Shown: positions 3,049 through 62,506 of the stretch, one piece after another
Position numbering within the stretch: position 1 is the stretch's first letter
Layout: each line of letters starts with the position of its first letter
Virus record (IMG/VR): IMGVR_UViG_3300044935_000065
Strand: one strand, 5' to 3'
DNA length: 64,000 nt
Source of the DNA: a virus
Lineage: Duplodnaviria > Caudoviricetes
The notes under the pieces: model-generated
The model's database searches: none
Told to the model about the DNA's origin: nothing
Seen by the model: only the letters and a program-made list of their open reading frames with translations
Program-made: the position numbers and the translations under genes

Positions 3049-6000
3049 TTGAATTTTGGAAATGACGATATGATCTCTCAGAAAGACAAAACTCTATTTA
3101 AAACCCATGTGTTGAAAAACCGTGAAATCCGTACTTATGACGATATTCATGATGCAATTGCAAACGTTTCGAGCGGTGAAAATCCAGGAACGGCAGTTGT
3201 CAATGCAATCAAGGGCGCTGTACTGGGTGGCCGATCAAAACAAGATAAAGACGACAAAGCGCTAAATAAGTTAAAAGGAGATCTGTTCGAAACGTTTGTT
3301 CACGGGATGATCATGACTGATCCAACCTTGAGAGTGGTCTATGCGTTCAAGCCTGGGGATAATGGTGTTATAGATGAAAATCGTCGTTATGCTATTGAGA
3401 AATTAGGCCTTCAGGATAAAGATCAAGACAACGGCATTGATCTTGTATTTATTGACAATATCGGACGTATATTCACTGTTCAGGACAAATATGTAACCAA
3501 TACGAATGCGTCAATTACATATAAAGCCGTGACTACGTTTTATGATCAGTCCAAAGCTGCAGATGGTCAGGTTTTGGTTACATCTGGCGCTCGTATAGAT
3601 GCGGAAAACAAAGGCCCGGAATTAAAAGGGTCGAACCGTATCAAGATAGTCTATGACGATCTTATTAGCCTGTCGGAAGATCGCATTCAGCAGATCATTG
3701 ATTACATCAATAAAAATTCATATGAGAAACGAAAAAAGAAAAATCCGAGGCCGGATCAGAACCGTGCACTTAAGAATATTAAAAGCGGGTTCTCCAAAGG
3801 TGATCGCATTCAGTATATCTCTGCATGTGGAACGGGTAAGACCTTTGTGTCGTCGCGGTTTACAAGCGATGTTTATAAAAAAGGTGGAGATGTCGTCGTT
3901 TTTGTGCCCAGTCTGAACCTGATGAAACAGACAATTGAATCCTGGGCTGACGAATTCGCAGATCGAGAGAACTACTCATTTCAAGCGATCTGTTCGGATA
4001 ACACCGTTACAGGCGATGTACCACGGATTGGTGAGGAAAACGCTGATTTAACGGTCGAAGATTTGAAGTGCTTTACGACGACCGATGTCGATACGATTAA
4101 AAACTATCTCAATCGTCCTCGGAAAAAGGATGAATTGAAGGTCACATTCTGTACTTATCAGTCGTCGCCTGTTTTAAGCGAAGCCATTAAAGACACAACA
4201 TTCAAAGCCTTCAATCTCGGCATTCTGGACGAAGCACACCGAACAGCTGTGCAGGGAGAGAGAAAGGCTGTCGATGAGAGTGCGTTCACCTACCCTCTTA
4301 ATGACGACAGAATTCCCATTCTGCAGCGCATGTCTATGACTGCGACGCCAAGGGTTATGAACATCAAAAAGAACAACGATGAGGACGACAGTTATGCGTA
4401 TTCAATGGATAACGAGGAGACTTATGGTCACGTTGCTCATGAATATAAATTCGCAGAAGCTGTAAAAGACGAGGTCATTGTTCCCTTTAAAATCGTCATT
4501 GCGGCTATGTTTAAAGACGAAGCTGATCATTACAATAATGCTCTTGTTCAGGCAGGTAAGTTGGAGCTTAACCGAGATGATGCAGCGGCAGCCTTAGCTG
4601 TGAAAAAGGTCATTGAAGAAACTGGCGCTCGGAACGTTGTGACCTATCAAACGACAACAAATTCTGCGCAAAGATTATCTAATATCATGAACGAGGTCAT
4701 GCCGGACAATTGGAACGTGAATTTCGTTAGCGGTAAGATGTCTGCAAAAGAACGTGCGCAGAAGGTGTCTATTCTTGGGCAGAGGAATCCGGCCATCATT
4801 ACTAATGCCAAGGTTATGACGGAAGGCGTCGACGTTCCTGATATTGATATGGTTGCGTTTGTCGATAATCGTGAAAGTGGCATCGATATTGTTCAGGCGG
4901 TTGGTCGTGTCACACGAAAATCAGCAAATAAAGAAACTGGCTATGTCGTTCTTCCGGTTGTGATGGATCGAAAGCCAGGTCAGACGCTTGAAGAAGTTGC
5001 CGAGAGTGCAGAATATTCCACACTTTATCGCGTCATCAATGCCCTTGCGGCAGAAGATGAAGATTTGATGGCTGTCATCAATGAGATGGCTTCCGCCCGC
5101 GGGTCTGGAGATGAGGAACGTATTAAAGCGGCGAGAGAAGATTTAAGCAGACGTATTATTCATACAGGCGCAAATGAACAACAAAATCCTAAGTATCTTG
5201 TCCTGTCTGAAACCATCGAAAGAATTATTGAGACAAAAATTGTCAATAAGCTGGCATCGTTTAGAACGCGTGTCGCTGAACTGAATAAGTATCTCGATGA
5301 GAATGGCGGGGAGTATCCTAAGAAGGGAGATAAAGAAGCTGAGTTCTCTGATGGTTCGTCTATGGGAATTTGGGTCAACACACAGAGAGTAGCTTATAAT
5401 GCAGGAAAAATGCCGCAGTCCAGAATAGACCTCTTAAATAGCATCGGGTTTAAATGGGTAGACGGAATGACTTTTGAAGAAAAAGTACAAGAACTCTATC
5501 AATATCTGAATGATAATGGCGGTAAGTATCCTGCAGCTGCGAATAAAGATGTTCTGTTTTCCGATGGAAAGCCTATGGGATCGTGGGTTAATACACAGAG
5601 ACAAGATTGTAAAACAGGGAAAATGCCGCAGTCTAGAATAGACCTCCTAAATAGCATCGGGTTTAAATGGGTTGATAAAGAATACAATTTGACTTTTGAA
5701 CAGAAAGTACAAGAATTTGATCAATATCTAAAAGACAATGGCGGCGTGTATCCTAAGTGGGGAGATAAAGACATTGCGTTCTCCGATGGGAAACCTATGG
5801 GAAGATGGGTCGGCACACTGAGATACGACCGTAAAGAAAATACATTATCGCAGGAAAAAATAGACCTCCTAAATAGCATCGGGTTTGAGTGGGGGACCAT
5901 TTCATTTGAACACAAGGTACAAGAATTTGATCAATATCTAAAAGATAATGGCGGAAGGTATCCTAAGTGGGATGATAAAGACAGTACGTTCTCCAATGGA

Positions 6001-6831
6001 ACGTCTATGGGAGCGTGGATCAGTCAACAGAGAACAGCTTATAATTCAAATAAAATGCCGCAGGCAAGAATAGACCTCCTAAATAGTATCAGGTTTAAAT
6101 GGGTATACGGAATGACTTTTGAAGAAAAAGTACAAAAACTATATCAATATTTAAAAGAGAATGGCGGGGTGTATCCTAAGAATAGGGATAAAGACACTAC
6201 GTTTTTCGATGGCAGTTTTATGGGATCGTGGGTTAGTCAACAAAGAACAGCTTATAATGCAGGGAAAATGTCGCAGGCCAGGATAGATCTGCTAGATAGC
6301 ATCGGGTTTGAGTGGGGGGCCATCTCATTTGAACAAAAGGTACAAGAATTTGATCAGTATCTAAATGATAATGGCAGTGTGCATCCTAAGTCGAATGATA
6401 AAGTCAATACGTTCTCAGATGGTTCGTCTATGGGATCGTGGGTCAATGCACAGAGAACAGCTTATAATGCAGATAAAATGCCGCAGGACAGAATAAAACT
6501 CCTAAATAGCATCGGGTTTAAATGGGAGTACGGAATGACTTTTGAAGAAAAAGTACAAGAATTTGATCAATATCTAAAAGATAATGGCGGTGAGTATCCT
6601 AAGCGGGGAGATAAAGACATTGCGTTCTCCGATGGTTCGTCTATGGGATCGTGGGTAGGCACTCAGAGAGTCGCTTATAATGCAAAGAAACTGCCGCAGT
6701 CCAGGATAGACCTGCTAGACAGCATCGGGTTTGAATGGGAACCCCAAAAAGGTCCAAAACCGAAATCAACCCCTGCTCCTAGAACACCAGATAATGATGA
6801 AGATGATAATCGTCCTTCGATGAGTATGTAG
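3049..6831 (+). CDS. Restriction-endonuclease-like (PD-(D/E)XK, Mrr-type) domain + SF2 DEAH helicase + 7 helicase-associated (HA) repeats
   Basis: GDLFE...DNGIDLV...VQDK nuclease motif; ACGTGKT, LDEAH, TATPR, EGVDVPDID, QAVGRVTR helicase motifs; seven ~70-aa F..KVQE...YP...G.WV..QR......RIDLL.SIGF.W repeats; likely ATG start at 3070. Confidence 0.9.
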   Translation: MNFGNDDMISQKDKTLFKTHVLKNREIRTYDDIHDAIANVSSGENPGTAVVNAIKGAVLGGRSKQDKDDKALNKLKGDLFETFVHGMIMTDPTLRVVYAFKPGDNGVIDENRRYAIEKLGLQDKDQDNGIDLVFIDNIGRIFTVQDKYVTNTNASITYKAVTTFYDQSKAADGQVLVTSGARIDAENKGPELKGSNRIKIVYDDLISLSEDRIQQIIDYINKNSYEKRKKKNPRPDQNRALKNIKSGFSKGDRIQYISACGTGKTFVSSRFTSDVYKKGGDVVVFVPSLNLMKQTIESWADEFADRENYSFQAICSDNTVTGDVPRIGEENADLTVEDLKCFTTTDVDTIKNYLNRPRKKDELKVTFCTYQSSPVLSEAIKDTTFKAFNLGILDEAHRTAVQGERKAVDESAFTYPLNDDRIPILQRMSMTATPRVMNIKKNNDEDDSYAYSMDNEETYGHVAHEYKFAEAVKDEVIVPFKIVIAAMFKDEADHYNNALVQAGKLELNRDDAAAALAVKKVIEETGARNVVTYQTTTNSAQRLSNIMNEVMPDNWNVNFVSGKMSAKERAQKVSILGQRNPAIITNAKVMTEGVDVPDIDMVAFVDNRESGIDIVQAVGRVTRKSANKETGYVVLPVVMDRKPGQTLEEVAESAEYSTLYRVINALAAEDEDLMAVINEMASARGSGDEERIKAAREDLSRRIIHTGANEQQNPKYLVLSETIERIIETKIVNKLASFRTRVAELNKYLDENGGEYPKKGDKEAEFSDGSSMGIWVNTQRVAYNAGKMPQSRIDLLNSIGFKWVDGMTFEEKVQELYQYLNDNGGKYPAAANKDVLFSDGKPMGSWVNTQRQDCKTGKMPQSRIDLLNSIGFKWVDKEYNLTFEQKVQEFDQYLKDNGGVYPKWGDKDIAFSDGKPMGRWVGTLRYDRKENTLSQEKIDLLNSIGFEWGTISFEHKVQEFDQYLKDNGGRYPKWDDKDSTFSNGTSMGAWISQQRTAYNSNKMPQARIDLLNSIRFKWVYGMTFEEKVQKLYQYLKENGGVYPKNRDKDTTFFDGSFMGSWVSQQRTAYNAGKMSQARIDLLDSIGFEWGAISFEQKVQEFDQYLNDNGSVHPKSNDKVNTFSDGSSMGSWVNAQRTAYNADKMPQDRIKLLNSIGFKWEYGMTFEEKVQEFDQYLKDNGGEYPKRGDKDIAFSDGSSMGSWVGTQRVAYNAKKLPQSRIDLLDSIGFEWEPQKGPKPKSTPAPRTPDNDEDDNRPSMSM
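5254..6738 (+). repeat. Seven tandem ~210-bp intragenic repeats encoding HA domains
   Basis: Recurring DNA blocks such as atagacctcctaaatagcatcgggttt and gtacaagaatttgatcaatatcta. Confidence 0.95.
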
Positions 6832-6871: not shown

Positions 6872-6886
6872 GAACAAACCGTGTAC
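6872..6886 (+). promoter_or_regulatory. Alphaproteobacterial LexA (SOS) box upstream of recA
   Basis: GAAC-aaaccgt-GTAC = GAAC-N7-GTAC, the known Rhizobium/Agrobacterium recA operator form, 33 bp before the ATG. Confidence 0.85.
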
Positions 6887-6919
6887 AAGCGCCGTCAATC
6901 GAACAGAAAGGCGGCGACC

Positions 6920-8011
6920 ATGGCAAAGGCATCCCTCAAGCTTGTAGAAGGCAATACTACAGATAAAGAGAAGGCGCTGGATTCAGCGCTGTCTCAGATC
7001 GAACGTGCATTCGGCAAGGGTTCAATCATGAAACTCGGTGCCAATGATCAGGTTGTGGAAGTCAAGACTATCTCGACTGGCTCCCTGTCACTAGACATCG
7101 CGCTGGGTATTGGTGGGCTTCCAAGAGGGCGTATTGTCGAAATCTATGGGCCTGAAAGTTCCGGTAAGACTACCCTCGCCCTCCATACTATCGCTGAAGC
7201 CCAAAAGTCAGGTGGCATCTGTGCATTTGTCGATGCCGAACATGCGCTTGATCCTGTTTACGCACGCAAGCTCGGTGTCGATCTTGATAACTTGCTGATC
7301 TCGCAGCCGGATACTGGAGAGCAGGCTCTTGAGATTACGGAAACCCTTGTTCGCTCAGGAGCAGTTGACGTCCTCATCGTGGATTCTGTGGCAGCCCTTA
7401 CACCTCGTGCAGAAATCGAAGGTGAAATGGGGGCATCGTTGCCAGGGTTACAAGCCCGTTTGATGTCTCAGGCCTTGCGCAAATTGACGGCGACAATTTC
7501 ACGGTCGAATACGCTCGTGATCTTCATCAATCAGATCCGCATGAAAATCGGTGTAATGTTTGGTTCTCCGGAAACCACGACTGGCGGGAATGCTCTCAAG
7601 TTCTACGCTTCTGTCCGTCTCGATATTCGCCGTATCGGTTCCATCAAGGAACGTGATGAAGTCATTGGTAATCAGACCCGTGTGAAGGTAGTCAAGAATA
7701 AGATGGCTCCTCCCTTCAAGCAGGTTGAATTCGACATTATGTATGGTGAAGGCGTTTCGAGAACTGGAGAAATCGTTGATCTTGGTGGGAAGGCCAACGT
7801 CGTTGAAAAGTCTGGAGCCTGGTTCTCGTACAATTCAGTGCGTCTTGGTCAGGGACGTGAGAATGCCAAACAGTTCCTGAAAGAGAACCCTGAGATTTGC
7901 GATGAAATCGCGGAAAAGCTGCGGGCTGATGCAGGGCTTATTGCAGATCAGTTGCTTGATAATAGTGGTCCTGATGCAGATGATGGAGATACATACGGCA
8001 TTGAGGATTGA
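6920..8011 (+). CDS. recA: Recombinase A, alphaproteobacterial type
   Basis: GPESSGKTT Walker [37 protein letters not shown] signature; ATG at 6920. Confidence 0.98.
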
Positions 8012-16681: not shown

Positions 16682-18205
16682 CTAACTTAATCGCTCCCAA
16701 CTGGCTTCCTCATATTCAACAGCATCAATCACCTGATGAATAATCGAAGATGGCGTCGTTGATCCCTGTCCTGCTACCCGTTTAATGATTTTGAGTGCAA
16801 TCTTGTAACGATCCGCCCTTTGGCTGGCTGCGTCCGCTCGAAATTTTGCCGAATTCAACATTAATCCGAAATTGTCTGGATCAATGAAATGCGTTCCATC
16901 TGGTAGCGTTCGTGTGGATTGACCGTTAGCAATTACTGCTGCAATTTCATCCCATAAATTCTCACGCTTGGCGATTTCTTCGATTTTACGTAGGCGAACT
17001 GCGTGCCATTCCCGCGTAAACAAGTCATTCTTTTCCAGTTTTTCTATTTCACGCTTTAAAATTCCAATCTCAGTAAGAAGATCGGAGTCGCGATATGCCA
17101 TGTTTGGATTAAAATCCTTAAGTGCGATTGCGAGTTTCATAATTGCTCGGAAATCGCTAGGACCAAACCAGGTAGTGATCGGTTGCCTCTGATTGGTGTC
17201 TGTCCAACCATCGTCATCAACGTTCCATCCGGCGAACGACGCAAAAGGTCTTAGGACTTCCGCGATTTCGCCACGCGTGAAGCCGTCGATGACTTTTTGA
17301 TCAATGGTTCGGTTCCAGTCAGCAATTGCAGCTTCCTTGGAGTAATGAGGTGCGGTCTCAGGTGAGCAGATGCAATGTTCATCGTTAGATTGCGCGCTGC
17401 AAACCACTTTGTAATTAACGTGATCAGGTGCTGTCACCTTAGGCGTTGAGTAACACCATGGGCAATCCTTGGGCTTAAGCTTATAATCGATGACAGGAAC
17501 AGAACCATCATCCTTGGCTGGATTAGCAGGGATGACGCCTGTTGCCTTATAGGCCTTAACCTCGGCTTCAAGGGTGGCAATACGCTTCTTGTAGTCGGCA
17601 ATCTCGTTTTCGGCGGCCTTCAGCTGCAGATGCTGTGCTTCGTAGGCCCAGTCAGATGTTGCAAGCCGCTTTAGCAGATCGCTGCAATGCGTCCGTAATT
17701 CCTCGGCATACACCGCCTGAAACTTGTGTTCATTCTTGAACTCTGGAGTAAATGACGGCTCTTTATCCGCATTTGTATAACTCCAGATGTCATCTGACTG
17801 ATCCGGTTTCGAAAGCCAACGATAGGCAATCGGCATGGCAGGATATGGAGACAAATCCGCAACCGCGTCCGCATAGACAGGAATAGTGAATTCGGTCGCG
17901 TGAATATCTTGATCATAATCTTTAAGGGCGCAGAACCGATTGTCTTGACCGTCCTCGGATGTTGACGTCAGATAGCCCACGAGCTTGCCATGAGGACGAT
18001 CATTAAAGCGCGTGTTCCATTCTTTTACCGCTTCATGGACGATGTCGTAGATATGCGTCATCGGTTGTGAACTGCATTCCGGAACATCATCATAATAATC
18101 CGCGCACACGAATTGCCATTCGTGTTCTTTGTTTCCACGCATTTTGACAGCTTCGCGGCCGCAAAATGGACAAGGCTTCAAACGAAGATCGGCCAAATTA
18201 TTCAT
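16682..18205 (-). CDS. Multidomain protein with two Lar-like (restriction alleviation) Zn-binding modules
   Basis: LKPCPFCG...C...C...EAVKEWNTR and PKDCPWC...C...C...AAIADWNR; ATG at 18205. Confidence 0.7.
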   Translation of the reverse strand: MNNLADLRLKPCPFCGREAVKMRGNKEHEWQFVCADYYDDVPECSSQPMTHIYDIVHEAVKEWNTRFNDRPHGKLVGYLTSTSEDGQDNRFCALKDYDQDIHATEFTIPVYADAVADLSPYPAMPIAYRWLSKPDQSDDIWSYTNADKEPSFTPEFKNEHKFQAVYAEELRTHCSDLLKRLATSDWAYEAQHLQLKAAENEIADYKKRIATLEAEVKAYKATGVIPANPAKDDGSVPVIDYKLKPKDCPWCYSTPKVTAPDHVNYKVVCSAQSNDEHCICSPETAPHYSKEAAIADWNRTIDQKVIDGFTRGEIAEVLRPFASFAGWNVDDDGWTDTNQRQPITTWFGPSDFRAIMKLAIALKDFNPNMAYRDSDLLTEIGILKREIEKLEKNDLFTREWHAVRLRKIEEIAKRENLWDEIAAVIANGQSTRTLPDGTHFIDPDNFGLMLNSAKFRADAASQRADRYKIALKIIKRVAGQGSTTPSSIIHQVIDAVEYEEASWERLS

Positions 18206-18552
18206 TATGAACTCCGGTTTTGATCTGACTGGAAATGAATAGAAGCTAGTGATTTCAATGACTGAAACAGACGGCATATGGAAACTGAAATCAATAATAA
18301 TACAAAAAATGTAAGGAGGGAGTGAAATACGATAATTACCTCATGTATTGAACCGTTAGAAAATAGATTCAATACAGAGGTCATACTCAGGTAGACAATT
18401 GAGGTCGCTATAATAACCACACATAAAAATATTCGTTTAATGTGCTGTTTAACACTTAGAGTGGCAAACTTGGCAGAACTACAAGTGCCAAACTCACTGT
18501 GAAAATCGTTCTCCACACTCATAAAATGCCTCACTTGTTTAATTGCTGCCAT
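18205..18552 (-). CDS. Hypothetical membrane protein
   Basis: Two hydrophobic segments, AT-rich. Confidence 0.45.
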   Translation of the reverse strand: MAAIKQVRHFMSVENDFHSEFGTCSSAKFATLSVKQHIKRIFLCVVIIATSIVYLSMTSVLNLFSNGSIHEVIIVFHSLLTFFVLLLISVSICRLFQSLKSLASIHFQSDQNRSS

Positions 18553-31665: not shown

Positions 31666-32280
31666 CTAGCTTTGGGATTTTGCTGCTAACTGATTTTCCA
31701 ATTCGGCAATGCGCTTATTTGCAAATTCCAGCTTTGCATCCGAAATTCGTTTACCTTCAACGGCCATCGCTGAAAGGTGCCTGAAACCAGACTGCATTTC
31801 ATCCAAGTCCGTCTGAAGACTGGCGATCACTTTGTCGACCTGCCCCTTTGCATACAAACCTTCGACGTCTGAAACAGGATATCCATTGTGGTGCATTGGC
31901 TCACATCCGTGAACAATTCCTCGTTGCGGCACCTGCTGTATCTGACCTCGAATATTGAGAGGCTCATTATAAACATAGCGATGTGCAACAACTTCAATGT
32001 CATGCTGCAAAAATTCTGACAAGGTACGCTCTTTCATTTCAGTGAAATAGCGTACTGGGAACGTGTTTTCATCTCGGGCGCGCATAAAATCTGCACCAAT
32101 GTTACATCTGCGGCCAATATCGTCGATACAGATAGCCTTGAGTGGGCGGCCACGATTATCCGTGATGCTCGTCAACGCCTGTTCTGCAAATGATACCCAT
32201 TGATCAAAGTTGTCAAACTGACCAAGAATAATGGGTTCTAGATGCGTTGCTGAAGTCTGTTTGTTCCAAGGTCTGCTCAT
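31666..32280 (-). CDS. Phage-like hypothetical protein
   Basis: F.NF.QWV..A...AICIDD.GRRC.IGADFMRARDE..FPVRYF motif. Confidence 0.7.
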   Translation of the reverse strand: MSRPWNKQTSATHLEPIILGQFDNFDQWVSFAEQALTSITDNRGRPLKAICIDDIGRRCNIGADFMRARDENTFPVRYFTEMKERTLSEFLQHDIEVVAHRYVYNEPLNIRGQIQQVPQRGIVHGCEPMHHNGYPVSDVEGLYAKGQVDKVIASLQTDLDEMQSGFRHLSAMAVEGKRISDAKLEFANKRIAELENQLAAKSQS

Positions 32281-32608
32281 GTATGTTGCATTTCTTTTTT
32301 GTTTCGCTTCGGAGTGAACGAATTCGGGATGTTATCAATGATACTTTTTTTATGCCAATTGATCCATAAATTTCTTCCATATCATCAAAATATGAATCCA
32401 TGGCACGTTTATGAACCTTTTCTTTTGCATAAAAACGGGCTTTGCGAGTATCTTCAGGGAACGGATTATTCAAATATTTGTAAGCGGCTTCTCTTGCCTG
32501 TATTCGATCAGCATAATATTGAGCATTTTTACCCATCAACTCGTACCTTTTTTGTGTGTAAATAAACATTTTTTGAATTTTATATCGACAAAAATAGCAA
32601 TCGAGCAC
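32213..32608 (-). CDS. Hypothetical protein (start probably MGKNAQ at 32536)
   Basis: ORF track. Confidence 0.5.
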   Translation of the reverse strand: MLDCYFCRYKIQKMFIYTQKRYELMGKNAQYYADRIQAREAAYKYLNNPFPEDTRKARFYAKEKVHKRAMDSYFDDMEEIYGSIGIKKVSLITSRIRSLRSETKKKCNIHEQTLEQTDFSNASRTHYSWSV

Positions 32609-32829: not shown

Positions 32830-32973
32830 GAAATTAGGTTCAGACCCCGATTTTTTGCAATTAAAAATAAGCCTTGAATTTGCTGGGTTTTATTGTACCT
32901 TAAAAAATCGTGGTTTTAACCCAATGTTCTTTGAAATCATTGCCACACCTACATTATCTCCCTTTTCGGGAGA
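32830..32973 (+). promoter_or_regulatory. CRISPR leader (AT-rich, I-F-like)
   Basis: AT-rich ~140 bp directly 5' of repeat 1, containing CAGACCCCGATTTTTT, similar to the GACCC-T-run motif of I-F leaders. Confidence 0.65.
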
Positions 32974-33540
32974 GTTTACCGCCGCACAGGCGGCTCTGAA
33001 TAGCATATCGAGACTGAAATGCCCGGTCGGCATGTTTACCGCCGCACAGGCGGCTCTGAATTATTCGTCGTTGTCATTCAAATCCCAAATTCCGTTTACC
33101 GCCGCACAGGCGGCTCTGAATAGGTGCGCAGTCCCGCACATTGATCAGATATCGTTTACCGCCGCACAGGCGGCTCTGAATTCTACAGCATGCAGAGAAA
33201 TGGAGGGTATTGAGTTTACCGCCGCACAGGCGGCTCTGAATAAAAAAAACGACGACCAGGCAGGACCAGGTAAGTTTACCGCCGCACAGGCGGCTCTGAA
33301 TATCACACCAACGAGATAGGTATCTCTCGTTTCGTTTACCGCCTTCTGGCGGCTCTGAATAGCACTGTCAAATTCATCGACAAACAGGATACGTTTACCG
33401 CCGCACAGGCGGCTCTGAATTTGCAGCGCGTTTGAGACCCTGCAATAGTCACGTTTACCGCCGCATAGGCGGCTCTGAATACTGGGTAGTCGGTTTACGT
33501 ATCATCGTGATAGTTTACCGCCGAACAGGCGGCATAGATA
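32974..33540 (+). CRISPR. CRISPR array: type I-F-like 28-nt repeat GTTTACCGCCGCACAGGCGGCTCTGAAT, 10 repeats, 9 spacers of 32 nt; no cas genes in the window
   Basis: Repeats start at 32974, 33034, 33094, 33154, 33214, 33274, 33334 (27-nt variant), 33393, 33453, 33513 (degenerate terminal); CCGCC/GGCGG stem. Confidence 0.98.
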
Positions 33541-33654: not shown

Positions 33655-34071
33655 ATGAGTGAATTGAACGATGGGGCTTACAAGCCTACTGACGAGGAGC
33701 CGTTCATGAATGAGCGGCAGCAGGCTTACTTTCGTACAAAACTGATAACGTGGAAAAATGAGATTCTGCGTGAAGCGAGAGACACGTTAGAAATTCTGCA
33801 GGAAAGTAATATCCATCAGCCAGACGTAGCAGATCGTGCATCATCTGAAGCTGACAGGGCAATCGAACTGCGTGCACGTGACAGGCAAAGAAAACTGATT
33901 GCCAAAATTGATGATGCACTTGCGCGCATTGAAGATGGAACATACGGATTCTGCGAAGAAACTGGCGATCCAATCAGTGTAAGAAGACTGGATGCGCGTC
34001 CCATCGCAACGCTTTCCATAGAAGCACAGGAACGCCATGAGCGTCGTGAAAAGGTTTATCGCGACGATTAA
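33655..34071 (+). CDS. dksA: RNA polymerase-binding transcription factor DksA, alphaproteobacterial single-Cys type
   Basis: PFMNERQ..YFR, PD.ADRASSE coiled-coil tip, YGFCEETG.PI..RRL.ARPIATLSIEAQERHER. Confidence 0.95.
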   Translation: MSELNDGAYKPTDEEPFMNERQQAYFRTKLITWKNEILREARDTLEILQESNIHQPDVADRASSEADRAIELRARDRQRKLIAKIDDALARIEDGTYGFCEETGDPISVRRLDARPIATLSIEAQERHERREKVYRDD

Positions 34072-34093: not shown

Positions 34094-34414
34094 TTATGCT
34101 CGCATTCTTGTATCGATCTCTTCATTGCATTTGAGCCATTCCAGTAATGGATATTCCCTTTTTGAAGAATGAAACCCTTTGGAATGCCATTCGCCATTTT
34201 TATGAGTGAAAACGACAAAACGGATGTAAATATTTCTCGGTCCAATTATGAAATCATAATGCTTTCCGTCTGAAAAAGTAGCTTGGCCGCTTAGCTGTTG
34301 TCCGTGTTTTATAAGTCCATCAGTTAGCACAACGTTTGTTACCGTGAGCTTCATCGAATGTCCCCAACCCTTTTGTGGACGGGAACGATACTCGTGAACG
34401 GTAGGTGGTGTCAA
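34094..34414 (-). CDS. Hypothetical protein
   Basis: ORF track; start uncertain. Confidence 0.55.
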   Translation of the reverse strand: MTPPTVHEYRSRPQKGWGHSMKLTVTNVVLTDGLIKHGQQLSGQATFSDGKHYDFIIGPRNIYIRFVVFTHKNGEWHSKGFHSSKREYPLLEWLKCNEEIDTRMRA

Positions 34415-34508
34415 CAGGCTAAAACTTTAGATTGTGGTTGGTGTTTGCTGGTAGTAAGGTTGGGCCTATTTGAGTTTCAAGTAGACCCATACTTTCTAAT
34501 ACGTAGGC

Positions 34509-35636
34509 TCAAATCAATCCAAAACCTGTGCGCGAAAGCACCTCAGCCGTAAAGCTGGCTTTAGATTCATCAAAGCATGCTAGCTGTAGGTGTTTTGCGA
34601 TGAGATACGTATTGATTTCATTCGGTTCTTGATTGAATGCGTCGTCAGTCAATGTGATGAAATATTCGGCATCGTCATTGTGATCAGAGAGTGCCGTTGC
34701 CTTCGCAACGACAACTCCAGCGTCTTCACAATCGTTTGCAGATGCTGCCAAAATGACTTTGATGTCTTCTACTTCGTTGGGCCACTCACCTTCATTGACG
34801 GCATCTTTACGATAGTCATCAAGGATGTCTCGGGCATCCTCGATAGCTTTCAATAGGTTGGTGTGGCTGACTACAATTCCATTTCCTGTAAAATTCGGAT
34901 CATAGACATGATACACCTTGCAGTCATCAATGTTCATTTTTGTTGCTGCATCATGTCCCAGCATCTTTAACGACTGAAAGTGATCCCGCCATTTAACAGC
35001 TCGCTCGTCAGCAATCAGGAACTTTTCCCGATAAGCGTCTGCATCTGGATTGTTATCTTTGAAATAGGCCAAAACTTCGGTTGCCATGCGTTCAAAATGC
35101 TTCTTAGGATAGGCCAGTTTTTTCGCATCGTCCTGGTATTCAGATTGGAATAAGAACTCTGCAAGTTCGGCTACCAGGTCGTTCTCGACGAATAGTGCCT
35201 CGAATGGTTCTGGCTGCATCAGATTTTCATCGCCGTTTTCCAGTGCATCAATCAAATCTTCCATTGCCTGTCGATATGAGGTCGCAGGTTCTGCATCTTC
35301 GGCGTAATCTTTACAGAGCGCGACAAAGCGGGATTTTAGATCGGATTTGGCTTCCGCGACCTTGGCGGCAATAGCCACATCGATGTCAGAAGTCAGGTTC
35401 TTAATCCTTGTCCATGCCTCAACTTCGAAGTCGATTTCGCTGTCGCTTGGAGTTCCTTTTTGCGCGATCACGGATTCATTTAGATCATGCAATCGGCTCC
35501 ACTCCTTGATAGATTTGAGCAGTTCTAGACCAGGCAGTCTCTCATCACAAGAATTGGAATCGATGCGCTTCCCGTAGTCGTACTGCGCTGCTGCCTTGGC
35601 TTCAGTTTCATCGGTGTTAGGTTCGAGTTCTTTCAT
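34509..35636 (-). CDS. Acidic hypothetical protein
   Basis: 375-aa ORF, operonic. Confidence 0.75.
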   Translation of the reverse strand: MKELEPNTDETEAKAAAQYDYGKRIDSNSCDERLPGLELLKSIKEWSRLHDLNESVIAQKGTPSDSEIDFEVEAWTRIKNLTSDIDVAIAAKVAEAKSDLKSRFVALCKDYAEDAEPATSYRQAMEDLIDALENGDENLMQPEPFEALFVENDLVAELAEFLFQSEYQDDAKKLAYPKKHFERMATEVLAYFKDNNPDADAYREKFLIADERAVKWRDHFQSLKMLGHDAATKMNIDDCKVYHVYDPNFTGNGIVVSHTNLLKAIEDARDILDDYRKDAVNEGEWPNEVEDIKVILAASANDCEDAGVVVAKATALSDHNDDAEYFITLTDDAFNQEPNEINTYLIAKHLQLACFDESKASFTAEVLSRTGFGLI

Positions 35637-35637
35637 A

Positions 35638-36030
35638 TTATTTAAACCCCGTCGTTAAAGTTTCTGTTTGATCTGACGGGTGTAGCGCTCGGCACATTTC
35701 ATCTGCGGTTTTAGCATCAATGCGATGCTCGTAAAGCGCGTCGATGATTTCATTCAGAGGCCGAATTTTATTTAAGAATTCTTCTTGATCATCGTTAAGT
35801 GGTTCAAGAAATTCAAGCGCATACAAACGCGTCTTTAGACGAGAGATTTCAGCATTTTTATCTGCGAGCGCAGCATCGACATCTTCAGCCCTTAAATAGC
35901 CTTCCAGGTGAGCTTCAACTACTTTATTGACCGCGTTGAGGATTTTGCCACCAGGACCATGTACGCCAGCGTCTTTAAGAGCGGATCGCAATTCTTTTTT
36001 GGCCTTTTCGATTTTATAAGACATAATCAA
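35638..36030 (-). CDS. Hypothetical protein
   Basis: Operonic ORF. Confidence 0.65.
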   Translation of the reverse strand: MIMSYKIEKAKKELRSALKDAGVHGPGGKILNAVNKVVEAHLEGYLRAEDVDAALADKNAEISRLKTRLYALEFLEPLNDDQEEFLNKIRPLNEIIDALYEHRIDAKTADEMCRALHPSDQTETLTTGFK

Positions 36031-36425
36031 TCCTTTTTGTTCCTGAGCAGAGTGCTTTTGCGTTGATAAAGATCGGTGAGAAAATCCGCATCCATGGAAT
36101 CTTCTTCAGAAATAAAACCATGACGGACGGCAATATCGATCACCTTGAAATCGAGCCAGTCGATATCGCCTCCAGAAATTTCGCCAGTCGAAGAATTCAC
36201 TTGAGGTCCGACCTCCATCCAGTACCGAATACGACTGCAGTAACAGTCAATCGCAGTTTTCTTGGAGGGGTTACGCAACAGCATTTCCATGTCGCGATCT
36301 TCATCATATGCGCCTGTCATATCATAAGCAGGCCCGTAGGTCTGCCACAGGTAATCGTGGTCAGCTCGGGCCTGCTCGTACGTAATCTTATCGCGGCGAA
36401 GGCGCGGCATCTTCCGTATCCTCAT
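36027..36425 (-). CDS. Hypothetical protein
   Basis: Operonic ORF; start uncertain. Confidence 0.65.
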   Translation of the reverse strand: MRIRKMPRLRRDKITYEQARADHDYLWQTYGPAYDMTGAYDEDRDMEMLLRNPSKKTAIDCYCSRIRYWMEVGPQVNSSTGEISGGDIDWLDFKVIDIAVRHGFISEEDSMDADFLTDLYQRKSTLLRNKKD

Positions 36426-37089
36426 GCGTCGATTGCTCGATCTGTTGCAGAATTTGGTCCCTAACCTTTTCATAATCATGGCTCGTTACAACACCATCAT
36501 TGTCGTATAGGTTATAGACGAAATCTCCAGCAATTTTTGCGCCTTCAACCAGACCCTTTTTGCGGCCCGCTTTGAACTTTTCGTCGTCGGATTGAGCTGG
36601 TAGTCGTGTAATGAAATACGAATTTGCCACAGTCTCGTAAATCGTTTGAGCGGCATCCATAGCCTCTTCGATAGTTTCATAACGCTCATCGTCGTCATCA
36701 TTGATCACGAAGTAATGAGGATCATTGTAATCACGCGGCGTCTTGATGACATCCACCTCCCACCAGCATTCAATGTTATAATCAGTGTGTGTCGTACATT
36801 TCCAAAATTCGTTTTCAAGAACCCACTCCAGTTTGCGGATTTCAACGCCGCTGGTTGCGATATCGGCAGGTTGCTCGGATACTCCGAACGTACATGCTTC
36901 TTCGACCATTTCCTTCAGGGTCTTCGCATCATTACGGGCAGCGAAAGCAACATAGGCAGGATCAAGCCGTGCGATTTCACGGGCGATCTGAGCAAGGTTG
37001 TCTTCCAGACGACCGTTGTCATGTGCAGACTTGAGAACTTTGTAGATGTCCACAGGTGCCAGCATCTTTGATTTCAATGTGTCAGTCAT
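36388..37089 (-). CDS. Phage-like hypothetical protein
   Basis: VEIRKLEW...Y.TIEEA..AAQ..YE motif; ATG at 37089. Confidence 0.7.
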   Translation of the reverse strand: MTDTLKSKMLAPVDIYKVLKSAHDNGRLEDNLAQIAREIARLDPAYVAFAARNDAKTLKEMVEEACTFGVSEQPADIATSGVEIRKLEWVLENEFWKCTTHTDYNIECWWEVDVIKTPRDYNDPHYFVINDDDDERYETIEEAMDAAQTIYETVANSYFITRLPAQSDDEKFKAGRKKGLVEGAKIAGDFVYNLYDNDGVVTSHDYEKVRDQILQQIEQSTHEDTEDAAPSPR

Positions 37090-37090
37090 G

Positions 37091-37642
37091 TTAAGCGCCC
37101 TTCCCTTGTGTTCTGTCTGCAATCTTCCGTAGTTTTTCAGATTTCCGCTTTCGCTTGATCTCGGCCGCACTCAAATGTGCTTCGTGATCCGGCTCTGTCG
37201 GTTTGTAGATGGATTTTTGCCTCCATCTGTAGGGTTCATGGCCCCGATGTGATGAAACAGACAACGAAGCCACGAGCGTTGCCAATGCAGCAGCGTTTAA
37301 ACCACTGTTTCTGCGCCGCTCACGATCATCGCTTTCACGTCGTAACATCGCATTAAAATCGTTGACATTTTTCTCAGTTTCTTCATCGTGATTAATAATG
37401 ATTTGCATCTCGTGAGGATCAACTGAAATTGGTTTGTCGTTATGATGGTCGGATGCATCGCTGTCGTCGAATACAACAACATCACCAATATTCTGACGAG
37501 ACATTGAGCGGTAATTGCAATCAGCACCGGAAACAAAAACGATATCTGAATCTGGAAACATGCCAGGTTCCAATTCACCGTCGAATACAATTCTATTTGT
37601 CATGATGAAACCTTTTCTAGAAATCAAAGCGCATCGAGCCAC
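37091..37642 (-). CDS. Hypothetical protein
   Basis: C-terminal LSAAEIKRKRK motif; likely start at MTNRIV. Confidence 0.65.
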   Translation of the reverse strand: MARCALISRKGFIMTNRIVFDGELEPGMFPDSDIVFVSGADCNYRSMSRQNIGDVVVFDDSDASDHHNDKPISVDPHEMQIIINHDEETEKNVNDFNAMLRRESDDRERRRNSGLNAAALATLVASLSVSSHRGHEPYRWRQKSIYKPTEPDHEAHLSAAEIKRKRKSEKLRKIADRTQGKGA

Positions 37643-38023
37643 ACTTTAATTATTAATTTCCTTTTTGCAGTTCACAAATAAAAAGTCAATAAATAAGACG
37701 CCACCTAGCCGGATGAATACAATTAACTGGATAATAAAATGAAAAGACGGCCTCCAGAAAGCGGGGGTGGGAGGCCGTCTATACGAAGAACGGGGCAGTG
37801 TTCAACGCAGTTCATAAAGAGCATGAATCGATCAAAAATGAAAGAGACAATGTAAATCTGCGTGTAAGGCAATACGATTATTGATCTTTTGGTTATCCGA
37901 CATCTTGCGGTGTATCGACAGTCGACACCAGGATTCGCGCTATCAAACTCATCAATGATGCATCTGATCAAATCAATAGCGGATACATAATGTGGAATTG
38001 CGCTGGACATTAGGCTTTTTGTC

Positions 38024-38488
38024 GTGACTTTATATATGCACACTGGAATAAAAAAGGCAGTAAATGTGACCAATAAATTAGATGACCACGAAGTAATGGA
38101 ATTACTGCGATCAGAATCGCCATTAAATAAAGCCCGCGCAAAATTTTCACATGCGAGCGCTCGCATTGAACAAGCTGGCCAGCAGCGGATCGGATTAAAC
38201 CCCATTGAATGGCGTCGTATGGAATTTGAAGCTGTTGGGGAAATTGCAGATGCGCTTGGCGTCCATATTCCATCAAGTGAAGTGGCCACAGCGCCAGATA
38301 TTCGCTTTATTTATAAGAACTGGCGAGGAGAAACACGTGAACGTCATGTTCGCCCGATTGGATATGATTATGGCTCCAATGAATGGCATCCGGAACCACA
38401 GTGGTTTTTGGTAGGTATCGATACAGAGACAGGAGAAAAGCGAAATTTCGCATTGAAGGATATTCAAAATTCCTGTAAGGAAAAATAA
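38024..38488 (+). CDS. WYL-domain protein without an obvious HTH
   Basis: IRFIYKNWRGETRERHVRP...WHPEPQWFLVGID.E.GEKRNFAL..I. Confidence 0.8.
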   Translation: MTLYMHTGIKKAVNVTNKLDDHEVMELLRSESPLNKARAKFSHASARIEQAGQQRIGLNPIEWRRMEFEAVGEIADALGVHIPSSEVATAPDIRFIYKNWRGETRERHVRPIGYDYGSNEWHPEPQWFLVGIDTETGEKRNFALKDIQNSCKEK

Positions 38489-61213: not shown

Positions 61214-62506
61214 CTAAGGGGATTTAAATGTGATTTTATTGCTATCAGCAATCATCGACCTCGGCTTAGAGGTAAATGATATCCCACTGCCTATAAATTT
61301 TGGAGATTCTATATCATAATTTGATAGCGTTTCAATATTCTGAAGATTAATTACTTCGCCGGATTTCATCTTTAATGGTTTGGAAGGTGCGCTACAATTC
61401 ATCATAATAATAGCTTTTGTAACGTCAATTAAGTTTGGCCAGTTAAGAGCGTTTAAATTATTACAGAATAATAGCTCGGCAATGATTGATTTCGGCATCT
61501 GGTAAATATCCGTGTCGGTTACATGTATTGATGAAACCGTTTCTAACGTAGTAGGCATATTTAGGATACAGGAATCTGCAATTCTTAAGCATAGTGAATT
61601 AGATTCTTCTAGTGAGGGGAAAAAATCTGTGTGTACCCCTTGCATATCAATGATATCAGAACCGATTAGCACTTTGGGTAGCGTAAATCTTATCCTATTA
61701 TCTATTAATACCTTGAAAATGCTCGCTTCCATAATTTCAGGAAGTTTAAACAAGCAGTGCCATTTGCCGTGTCGATCAACGATATAAGGCAAGCGGTTGG
61801 TTGCAGTTCCGTTTTTCGGGATAGCGTCGATACTTTGAAAATAATCAATTATCATATCCATGAGAGCAAAGGAAACAGGTGTGTTATTGAAACCCTGAAC
61901 TTGGATTACTTCAAATGCTTTTTTTGCAGTCGGGAACGCCCCGAGTTCAATAGTTGCTACTGGATTGCCGCCTTTATCACGCACAGATAGCAACTGGCAA
62001 TCGGATGTACTGAGTTTCCAGTCATATGCACCACCACCAATGCAGTGCCTCATTATTCTGCTTTCTTCATCTAAGGATTCTGGTGTCAGCAATTGAACGA
62101 CGGAATAGCCACGGCCAAGGTCTTCTAGGTGGCGTATTTGTTCAATGTCTTTTCTAAAATTAACAAGCTTTTGCGATGCCTTTAGCATTGCTTTGTCAGC
62201 TTCGGCAGTAATTTGAGCTATAGAATGAAATTTCATAAGCTTTTTTGGACGATCTAGTTCGTCTAGGTTATGAAGCCATGAAGCATTATTGATTAGGGAA
62301 GCTTCAAGCCAATCAGCTATATGAGGCAACGCTCTTGACGCCATCATTAGTGCGAATTGAGCTTTGCCGTTTTTACGGATATCGTTCAACAATACGCGTC
62401 CGAAGCTTAGCTTTAGGATTCGTGAAATGTCGACAGACCTCGTTGCTCGCATCATTATGGCGTCAATCTGGCCTTCCAATTTGGCTAATTGTTCTGCATG
62501 CATCAT
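61214..62506 (-). CDS. PcfJ-like domain protein with an LRR-like C-terminus
   Basis: LLTPESLDEES..MRHCIG...Y...LSVRD.....ATIEL...QVQG..N. Confidence 0.75.
   Translation of the reverse strand: MMHAEQLAKLEGQIDAIMMRATRSVDISRILKLSFGRVLLNDIRKNGKAQFALMMASRALPHIADWLEASLINNASWLHNLDELDRPKKLMKFHSIAQITAEADKAMLKASQKLVNFRKDIEQIRHLEDLGRGYSVVQLLTPESLDEESRIMRHCIGGGAYDWKLSTSDCQLLSVRDKGGNPVATIELGAFPTAKKAFEVIQVQGFNNTPVSFALMDMIIDYFQSIDAIPKNGTATNRLPYIVDRHGKWHCLFKLPEIMEASIFKVLIDNRIRFTLPKVLIGSDIIDMQGVHTDFFPSLEESNSLCLRIADSCILNMPTTLETVSSIHVTDTDIYQMPKSIIAELLFCNNLNALNWPNLIDVTKAIIMMNCSAPSKPLKMKSGEVINLQNIETLSNYDIESPKFIGSGISFTSKPRSMIADSNKITFKSP

Follow-up and report, generated by a model that had tools for sequence, protein, structure and literature searches.

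A CRISPR array of the type I-F kind, complete with a leader, lies in a stretch of DNA in which no cas genes were detected, and this raises the question of which Cas proteins, if any, it works with. The initial annotation had noted the lack of cas genes within 30 kb on either side and proposed that the array works in trans with a distant plasmid cas operon or a divergent effector, or that it acts as a decoy for host Cas proteins. Our searches extended the absence to the whole 64-kb stretch analysed (hereafter the window): for cas genes or their remnants, tblastn with three sets of I-F Cas protein sequences yielded only matches with E values above 0.2, and no cas gene was recognized by Pfam among the 40 ORFs scanned.

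The array and its parts were placed in the window as follows.

32845..32973, plus strand: CRISPR leader, 129 nt, 36% GC, defined by alignment of the leaders of 15 arrays
32974..33540, plus strand: CRISPR array, defined by repeat/spacer alignment and hairpin fold
33122..33153, plus strand: spacer 3, matching a protospacer in provirus IMGVR_UViG_3300011151_000013 at 32 of 32 positions
33334..33360, plus strand: variant repeat R7, 27 nt, in which the loop TTCT replaces GCACA and the stem and handle are intact
33513..33540, plus strand: degenerate terminal repeat R10, whose final 8 nt are CATAGATA

The 10 repeats and 9 distinct 32-nt spacers described initially were confirmed, with repeat starts every 60 nt and all nine spacers differing from one another. 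Repeat length is 28 nt in 9 of the 10 repeats and 27 nt in the other, so that the 28-nt repeat and 32-nt spacer of type I-F are both present, and the 28-nt consensus, GTTTACCGCCGCACAGGCGGCTCTGAAT, is identical in R1 to R6 and in R8, with a single loop substitution in R9. Thus, where decay had been described as confined to the distal end, the six identical leader-proximal repeats stood, but a decay of the terminus only did not, as the altered repeats (R7, R9, and R10) are spread over the distal half. The minimum-free-energy structure of the repeat contains a 5-bp GC hairpin with a CCGCC/GGCGG stem; this hairpin (5-bp stem, 5-nt loop) occupies repeat positions 6 to 20 and leaves 8 nt downstream, the same position as in 70 reference I-F repeats. 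The Rfam CRISPR-DR4 threshold (35 bits) was reached by R10 only, at 35.5 bits, and Tandem Repeats Finder reported nothing on the array, which is expected since the spacers are unrelated to each other. The orientation of the array follows from the leader, from the degeneracy of the terminal repeat, and from the side on which the PAM of spacer 3 lies. As first annotated, the array stands between a hypothetical gene on the minus strand (32213-32608) and dksA (33655-34071).

The leader that had been proposed was found directly upstream as an AT-rich segment. It contains the boxes conserved in the I-F lineage described below, namely GACCCCGATTTTT, an inverted partner AAAAATCG(G/T)GG, and GTTCTTTGAAATC, and a CTCC...GGAG hairpin in it abuts repeat 1; a promoter scan of the leader gave no score above the shuffled background. 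Searches for close copies of the array returned no exact repeat in IMG/VR, no 24-nt repeat core in 185,579 reference genomes, and no near-identity match to the array region in PLSDB and INPHARED.

Next, we examined what the spacers match. The protospacer of spacer 3 is preceded by 5′-CC, the canonical I-F PAM, and this holds only in the proposed orientation of the array; the PAM was seen on one protospacer, and the chance of CC in a single case is 1/16. The provirus encodes portal, major head, head protease, major tail, and tape-measure proteins; the gene that follows the tape-measure gene contains the protospacer. The spacer search with PAM inference that the initial annotation had suggested, with CC expected, therefore bore fruit, but its expectation of plasmid targets was not supported, the sole identified target being this tailed-phage provirus and nothing significant appearing in PLSDB. 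Exact scans of IMG/VR covered seven of the nine spacers (1 to 4 and 6 to 8); for spacers 1, 2, 4, 6, 7, and 8, scanned with every sixth base unconstrained, no match was obtained. At E ≤ 1, the only matches of the array in PLSDB and INPHARED were nonsignificant (29 of 33 bases in Sinorhizobium, E = 0.5, and a phage record, E = 0.6). Comparison of the spacers with about 110 kb of the replicon and with the related cas loci examined revealed no self-targeting or anti-cas spacer. These results indicated, on the grounds of array structure and of this one target, that the array was built by an I-F system and that one of its spacers was acquired from a tailed phage beside a CC PAM.

The feature that could point to an unusual effector is the 3′ end of the repeat. 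Its last 8 nt are CTCTGAAT, which differ from the canonical I-F handle CU(U/A/C)AGAAA, and the atypical end noted initially is thereby confirmed. The handles of 70 I-F reference loci, taken from species genomes, all conform to CT(T/A/C/G)AG(A/C)A(A/G) or nearly so; a CTCT handle, with T at handle position 4, occurs in none of them. When JGI metagenome contigs were scanned for the hairpin followed by CTCTGAA, about 20 arrays were obtained with repeats ending in CTCTGAA(T/G). By tblastn, arrays with this handle flank full I-F operons in the metagenomic loci L023, L012, and L086, and Pfam matches above threshold were found for Cas1, Csy1, Csy2, Csy3, and Csy4 in L023 and for Csy3 and Csy4 in L012. 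A further metagenomic locus, L036, carries a repeat identical to that of the window directly after cas1 and cas2-3. The divergent effector invoked by the initial annotation is thus not supported, since the variant handle is common to a lineage with standard I-F cas genes and does not point to a foreign effector. Across the 185,579 reference species genomes, the best Csy3 match reaches only about 40% identity. We conclude from these comparisons of repeats and gene content that the atypical handle is a trait of an I-F1 sub-lineage, so far seen only in metagenomes. The reference genomes are thus missing an I-F1 lineage whose crRNA handle is distinct and whose handle-binding subunits (Csy1 and Csy2) have diverged.

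To identify the replicon that carries the array, we performed an exact look-up of the DksA protein, after which overlapping loci were chained without mismatch, and this linked the window to the JGI metagenome contig Ga0485381_00007 (1,002,202 bp), with 100% identity over 20.4 kb and over the last 10.7 kb compared. The same contig of about 1.0 Mb recurs at near-equal size in many JGI assemblies, the longest on record being 1,002,252 bp, and the array-adjacent genes and csy3 each lie on contigs of more than 1 Mb in 43 data blocks. Pfam recognized transfer genes in the window, encoding DotM, DotD, a TraI/DotC-like lipoprotein, and a DotB-like ATPase, together with genes for ParM, PcfJ, RecA, DksA, and peptide deformylase; most genes had no Pfam match. 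The nearest DotM proteins in PLSDB, at 32 to 46% identity, belong to alphaproteobacterial megaplasmids of 0.7 to 1.3 Mb. The replicon is thus a conjugative element of about 1.0 Mb with a Dot/Icm-type type IVB secretion system, and the contig looks like a giant conjugative plasmid of a Pseudomonadota host. The CTCT-handle I-F1 lineage as a whole appears to live on very large conjugative elements.

Several other genes on this replicon were recorded. Just past the transfer genes, at least four paralogous PcfJ-like genes (430 to 517 aa) stand in a row (window 61214-62506 and L090 708-7415). A 1260-aa SF2 helicase (ResIII, Helicase_C) with seven HA (helicase-associated) domains is encoded at window 3049-6831, directly upstream of the plasmid-borne recA (6881-8011), and a 531-aa protein with two Lar (restriction alleviation) domains is encoded at 16682-18277.

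We then walked the contig from the right end of the window with exact protein look-ups, and this revealed a complete type I-F1 locus downstream of the array, with cas2-3 starting 58,551 bp from the array end. Its parts are listed in window-equivalent coordinates, that is, with the window numbering continued along the contig.

90,863-91,929: cas-adjacent array, 18 repeats and 17 spacers
92,091-95,642: cas2-3, 1183 aa
up to 96,553: cas1, next to cas2-3
96,631-100,925: csy1-csy2-csy3-csy4, divergent (csy4 at L093 11186-11779)
101,021-101,090 (L093 11875-11944): collapsed csy4-side array of one repeat, a 14-nt remnant, and one degenerate repeat

The cas1 gene, the cas2-3 fusion, and csy1 to csy4 all lie 58.5 to 67 kb downstream of the array, and the six genes are full-length ORFs without stops, matching the Pfam families Cas3_I-F_Cas2, Cas_Cas1, and Csy1 to Csy4. 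The element's Cas2-3 is 47% identical to a Cas2-3 of the lineage and its Csy3 48% identical to a lineage Csy3; the homologue lists for these two lineage proteins missed the element's own proteins, although they included weaker matches, and a protein unlisted there is therefore not to be taken as absent. Compared with solved structures, the element's Cas6f gave a weak match (E = 4.7e-5) with the catalytic N terminus outside the aligned part. The cas-adjacent array had no matches in PLSDB and INPHARED. An orphan array, meaning one with no matching cas genes on its replicon, was ruled out by the complete I-F1 locus on the same 1,002,202-bp contig. A type I-F3 (CAST) system was likewise ruled out, as the 1183-aa Cas2-3 stands beside cas1 and no Tn7-like gene occurs among the called genes of L091 to L093. 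Between the remote array and the cas locus (L090 10368-16698 and L091 2902-5505) we observed genes of defence or toxin type, for a HipA_C kinase, a GmrSD_N-like protein, T5orf172/MUG113, AbiEii, and an Xre/MbcA-like antitoxin, a nearby cluster that places the cas locus in a defence-rich stretch.

With a complete cas locus 58.5 kb away on the same replicon, the array reads as an ordinary remote array, neither orphan nor decoy, and it looked orphaned because the 64-kb window was too short to reach the cas genes. We put at roughly two in three the probability that it is a remote, third array of the type I-F1 system encoded on the same conjugative element of about 1.0 Mb. Among the options first proposed, the distant plasmid cas operon is thus the one that held, and the divergent effector and the decoy for host Cas proteins were not supported. 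As a decoy or RNA anti-CRISPR, the repeats would titrate host Cas6f or Csy proteins and shield the plasmid from host immunity, and such a role would suit an array that is carried by a mobile element at a distance from cas genes and whose repeat departs slightly from the cas-adjacent one; yet this array is preceded by a complete leader and contains nine unique spacers of 32 nt, one of them derived from a phage and showing the correct PAM, and the Cas proteins concerned are the element's own, which makes this role highly improbable. To our knowledge, RNA anti-CRISPRs are solitary repeat units with no leader or acquisition history. The chief value of the result is therefore one of correction, in that no trans-acting, decoy, or new-effector mechanism is needed.

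Under the reading as a remote array of the element's own system, the course of events can be proposed from established I-F biology, on which the steps of transcription, Csy4 cleavage, loading, and degradation all draw. The array would be transcribed from its own leader, and the element's Cas6f (Csy4) would cleave the repeats at the 3′ base of their CCGCC/GGCGG hairpins, so that the resulting crRNAs, about 60 nt long, would carry CUCUGAAU as their 8-nt handle. These would be loaded into the Csy1-3 complex, and CC-flanked DNA, such as that of the phage matched by spacer 3, would be recognized and destroyed with Cas2-3. In this manner the element may protect its host cell and hence itself.

A syntenic relative indicates how such an arrangement looks in another element. 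Contig Ga0180218_1000014 (596 kb) has a complete I-F locus with two cas-adjacent arrays and, 81 kb away, a remote array flanked by homologues of window 32345-32590 and 34217-38470 at 54 to 86% amino-acid identity. The two remote arrays have no spacer in common, and their spacers have thus turned over since the elements diverged. The cas locus is also syntenic with that of the relative, since in both it is flanked by the same genes, namely DUF465, an SNase gene, and a four-gene operon. When the window was searched by tblastx with the genes that flank cas in the relative, no match appeared. Where the csy4-side array of the element is collapsed, the relative carries an array of 27 repeats. Between the two elements, the Cas proteins are 30 to 65% identical and the locus-flanking genes 53 to 84% identical. 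Within the relative, the repeats of the remote array and of the cas2-3-side array match at all but 1 of 28 positions, and the two leaders show 85% identity.

The remote and the cas-adjacent array of our replicon are less alike. The initial annotation had held that a canonical I-F cas operon with identical repeats elsewhere on the replicon would make this an ordinary remote array; the operon was found, and by this standard the array is in essence an ordinary remote one, although the repeats are not identical, the cas-adjacent repeat, CTTATCCGCCATGTAGGCGGCTCTAAAT, matching the remote one at 20 of 28 positions. The eight differences comprise three in the 5′ flank, four in the loop, and one in the handle; the two repeats agree throughout the stem and in the first four bases of the handle. 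The remote leader is 64% identical to the replicon's own cas2-3-side leader, compared with 86% to the L036 leader, with which homology begins exactly at the L036 cas2-3 stop codon; the own cas2-3-side leader is without the GTTCTTTGAAATC box, and the remote leader keeps all the lineage boxes. Given this divergence in repeat, leader, and Cas proteins, the compatibility of the local Cas6f, Csy1/Csy2, and Cas1 with the remote array is something that we infer. In the single locus L012/L066, the two arrays differ in their loops (GCATA versus GTGCA), and as loop differences are tolerated there, we consider it likely, from repeat comparison, that the local Cas6f processes the remote array. The drift of repeat and leader between two arrays of one replicon provides a natural test case for the tolerance of I-F processing and adaptation.

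The mismatch implies either that the cas module diverged fast or was replaced in place, or that the remote array was re-imported from an L036-like system. According to the first possibility, the cas module with its adjacent arrays and leaders would have diverged or been replaced in situ by a distant allele, leaving the remote array stranded as a decaying relic that retains the ancestral repeat and leader and that the local Cas proteins would no longer process, load, or extend. Consistent with it are the 20/28 match and the leader identities just given, a divergence from the relative that is greater in the Cas proteins than in the syntenic flanking genes, the single difference between the relative's own remote and cas2-3-side repeats, the mutations in R7, R9, and R10, and the presence of 9 spacers compared with 17 in the cas-adjacent array. 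However, the shared stem and first four handle bases, the perfect identity of the six leader-proximal repeats, the intact leader boxes, the full match of spacer 3 to its phage, and the loop differences tolerated inside single loci of the lineage all speak against it, and we regard a stranded relic as unlikely.

Alternatively, a second I-F system of the L036 type, encoded by the host chromosome or by a co-resident element, could serve the array in trans, the array having perhaps been acquired horizontally. The identical 28-nt repeat and the 86% identical leader directly after cas2-3 in L036 would fit this, and isolated I-F arrays have been reported to be laterally transferred in Pseudomonas aeruginosa (PMC13142298). 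The L036 Cas2-3, however, was found only on two short contigs, from samples other than the one that contains the 1-Mb contig; the position of the array is conserved with the 596-kb relative, which favours inheritance over recent import; and the replicon itself encodes a complete cas locus. Service in trans therefore seems quite improbable.

A broader form of these ideas, which we put forward as a doubtful possibility suggested by the repeat and leader comparisons, is that the remote array represents an ancestral type mismatched in repeat and leader to its own cas module, being either the fossil of an in-situ cas-module swap or a shared memory bank read by a second, L036-type I-F system of the same cell. 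If true, it would imply modular exchange of arrays and cas operons among conjugative elements of about 1 Mb in an uncharted I-F lineage with a CUCU handle.

For the preferred reading, that of a remote array served by the cas locus of its own replicon, the closest known case is P. aeruginosa ATCC 10145, whose isolated I-F array CRISPR3, 1.3 Mb from cas, is experimentally active in interference and primed adaptation (preprint PMC13142298). [quoted passage not shown] They differ in distance (58.5 kb here versus 1.3 Mb) and in setting (a conjugative element of about 1 Mb versus a chromosome), and while the P. aeruginosa leaders differ by 3 bp, the remote array here matches its own cas-adjacent array poorly, at 20 of 28 repeat positions and with 64% leader identity.

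CRISPR components on plasmids, apparent orphans included, are common (survey PMC9071438), and the orphan I-F CRISPR4 arrays of Escherichia coli carry anti-cas spacers (Almendros et al. 2016, as related in PMC9071438). The array in the window resembles the plasmid orphan arrays of that survey and E. coli CRISPR4 in being short, on a plasmid-like element, and without cas genes nearby. Unlike them, it has cas genes of the cognate type on its replicon, and no spacer matches the cas loci examined.

With canonical I-F1 systems (Pseudomonas, Pectobacterium, and Enterobacteriaceae; repeat GTTCACTGCCGTACAGGCAGCTTAGAAA), the element has in common the 28-nt repeat, the 32-nt spacers, the same stem and loop positions, the CC PAM, and the gene set cas1, cas2-3, and csy1 to csy4. 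It departs from them in the handle, CTCT(G/A)AA(T/G) versus CT(T/A/C)AGAAA, and in the Csy1 of the lineage, whose match to Pfam is weak. Plasmid plas12 of Salinimonas iocasae (NZ_CP039853.1, 348 kb) is similar in being a megaplasmid with Dot/Icm-type transfer genes, ParM, an I-F1 operon, and the repeat hairpin CCGCCGCACAGGCGG, but it has a canonical handle, CTTAGAAA, its array directly adjoins cas6f, and its Cas proteins are 24 to 37% identical to those of the element. This plasmid, typed as non-mobilizable in PLSDB, carries a full I-F1 system with a 23-repeat array, a PRTRC system, and DotA/TraY.
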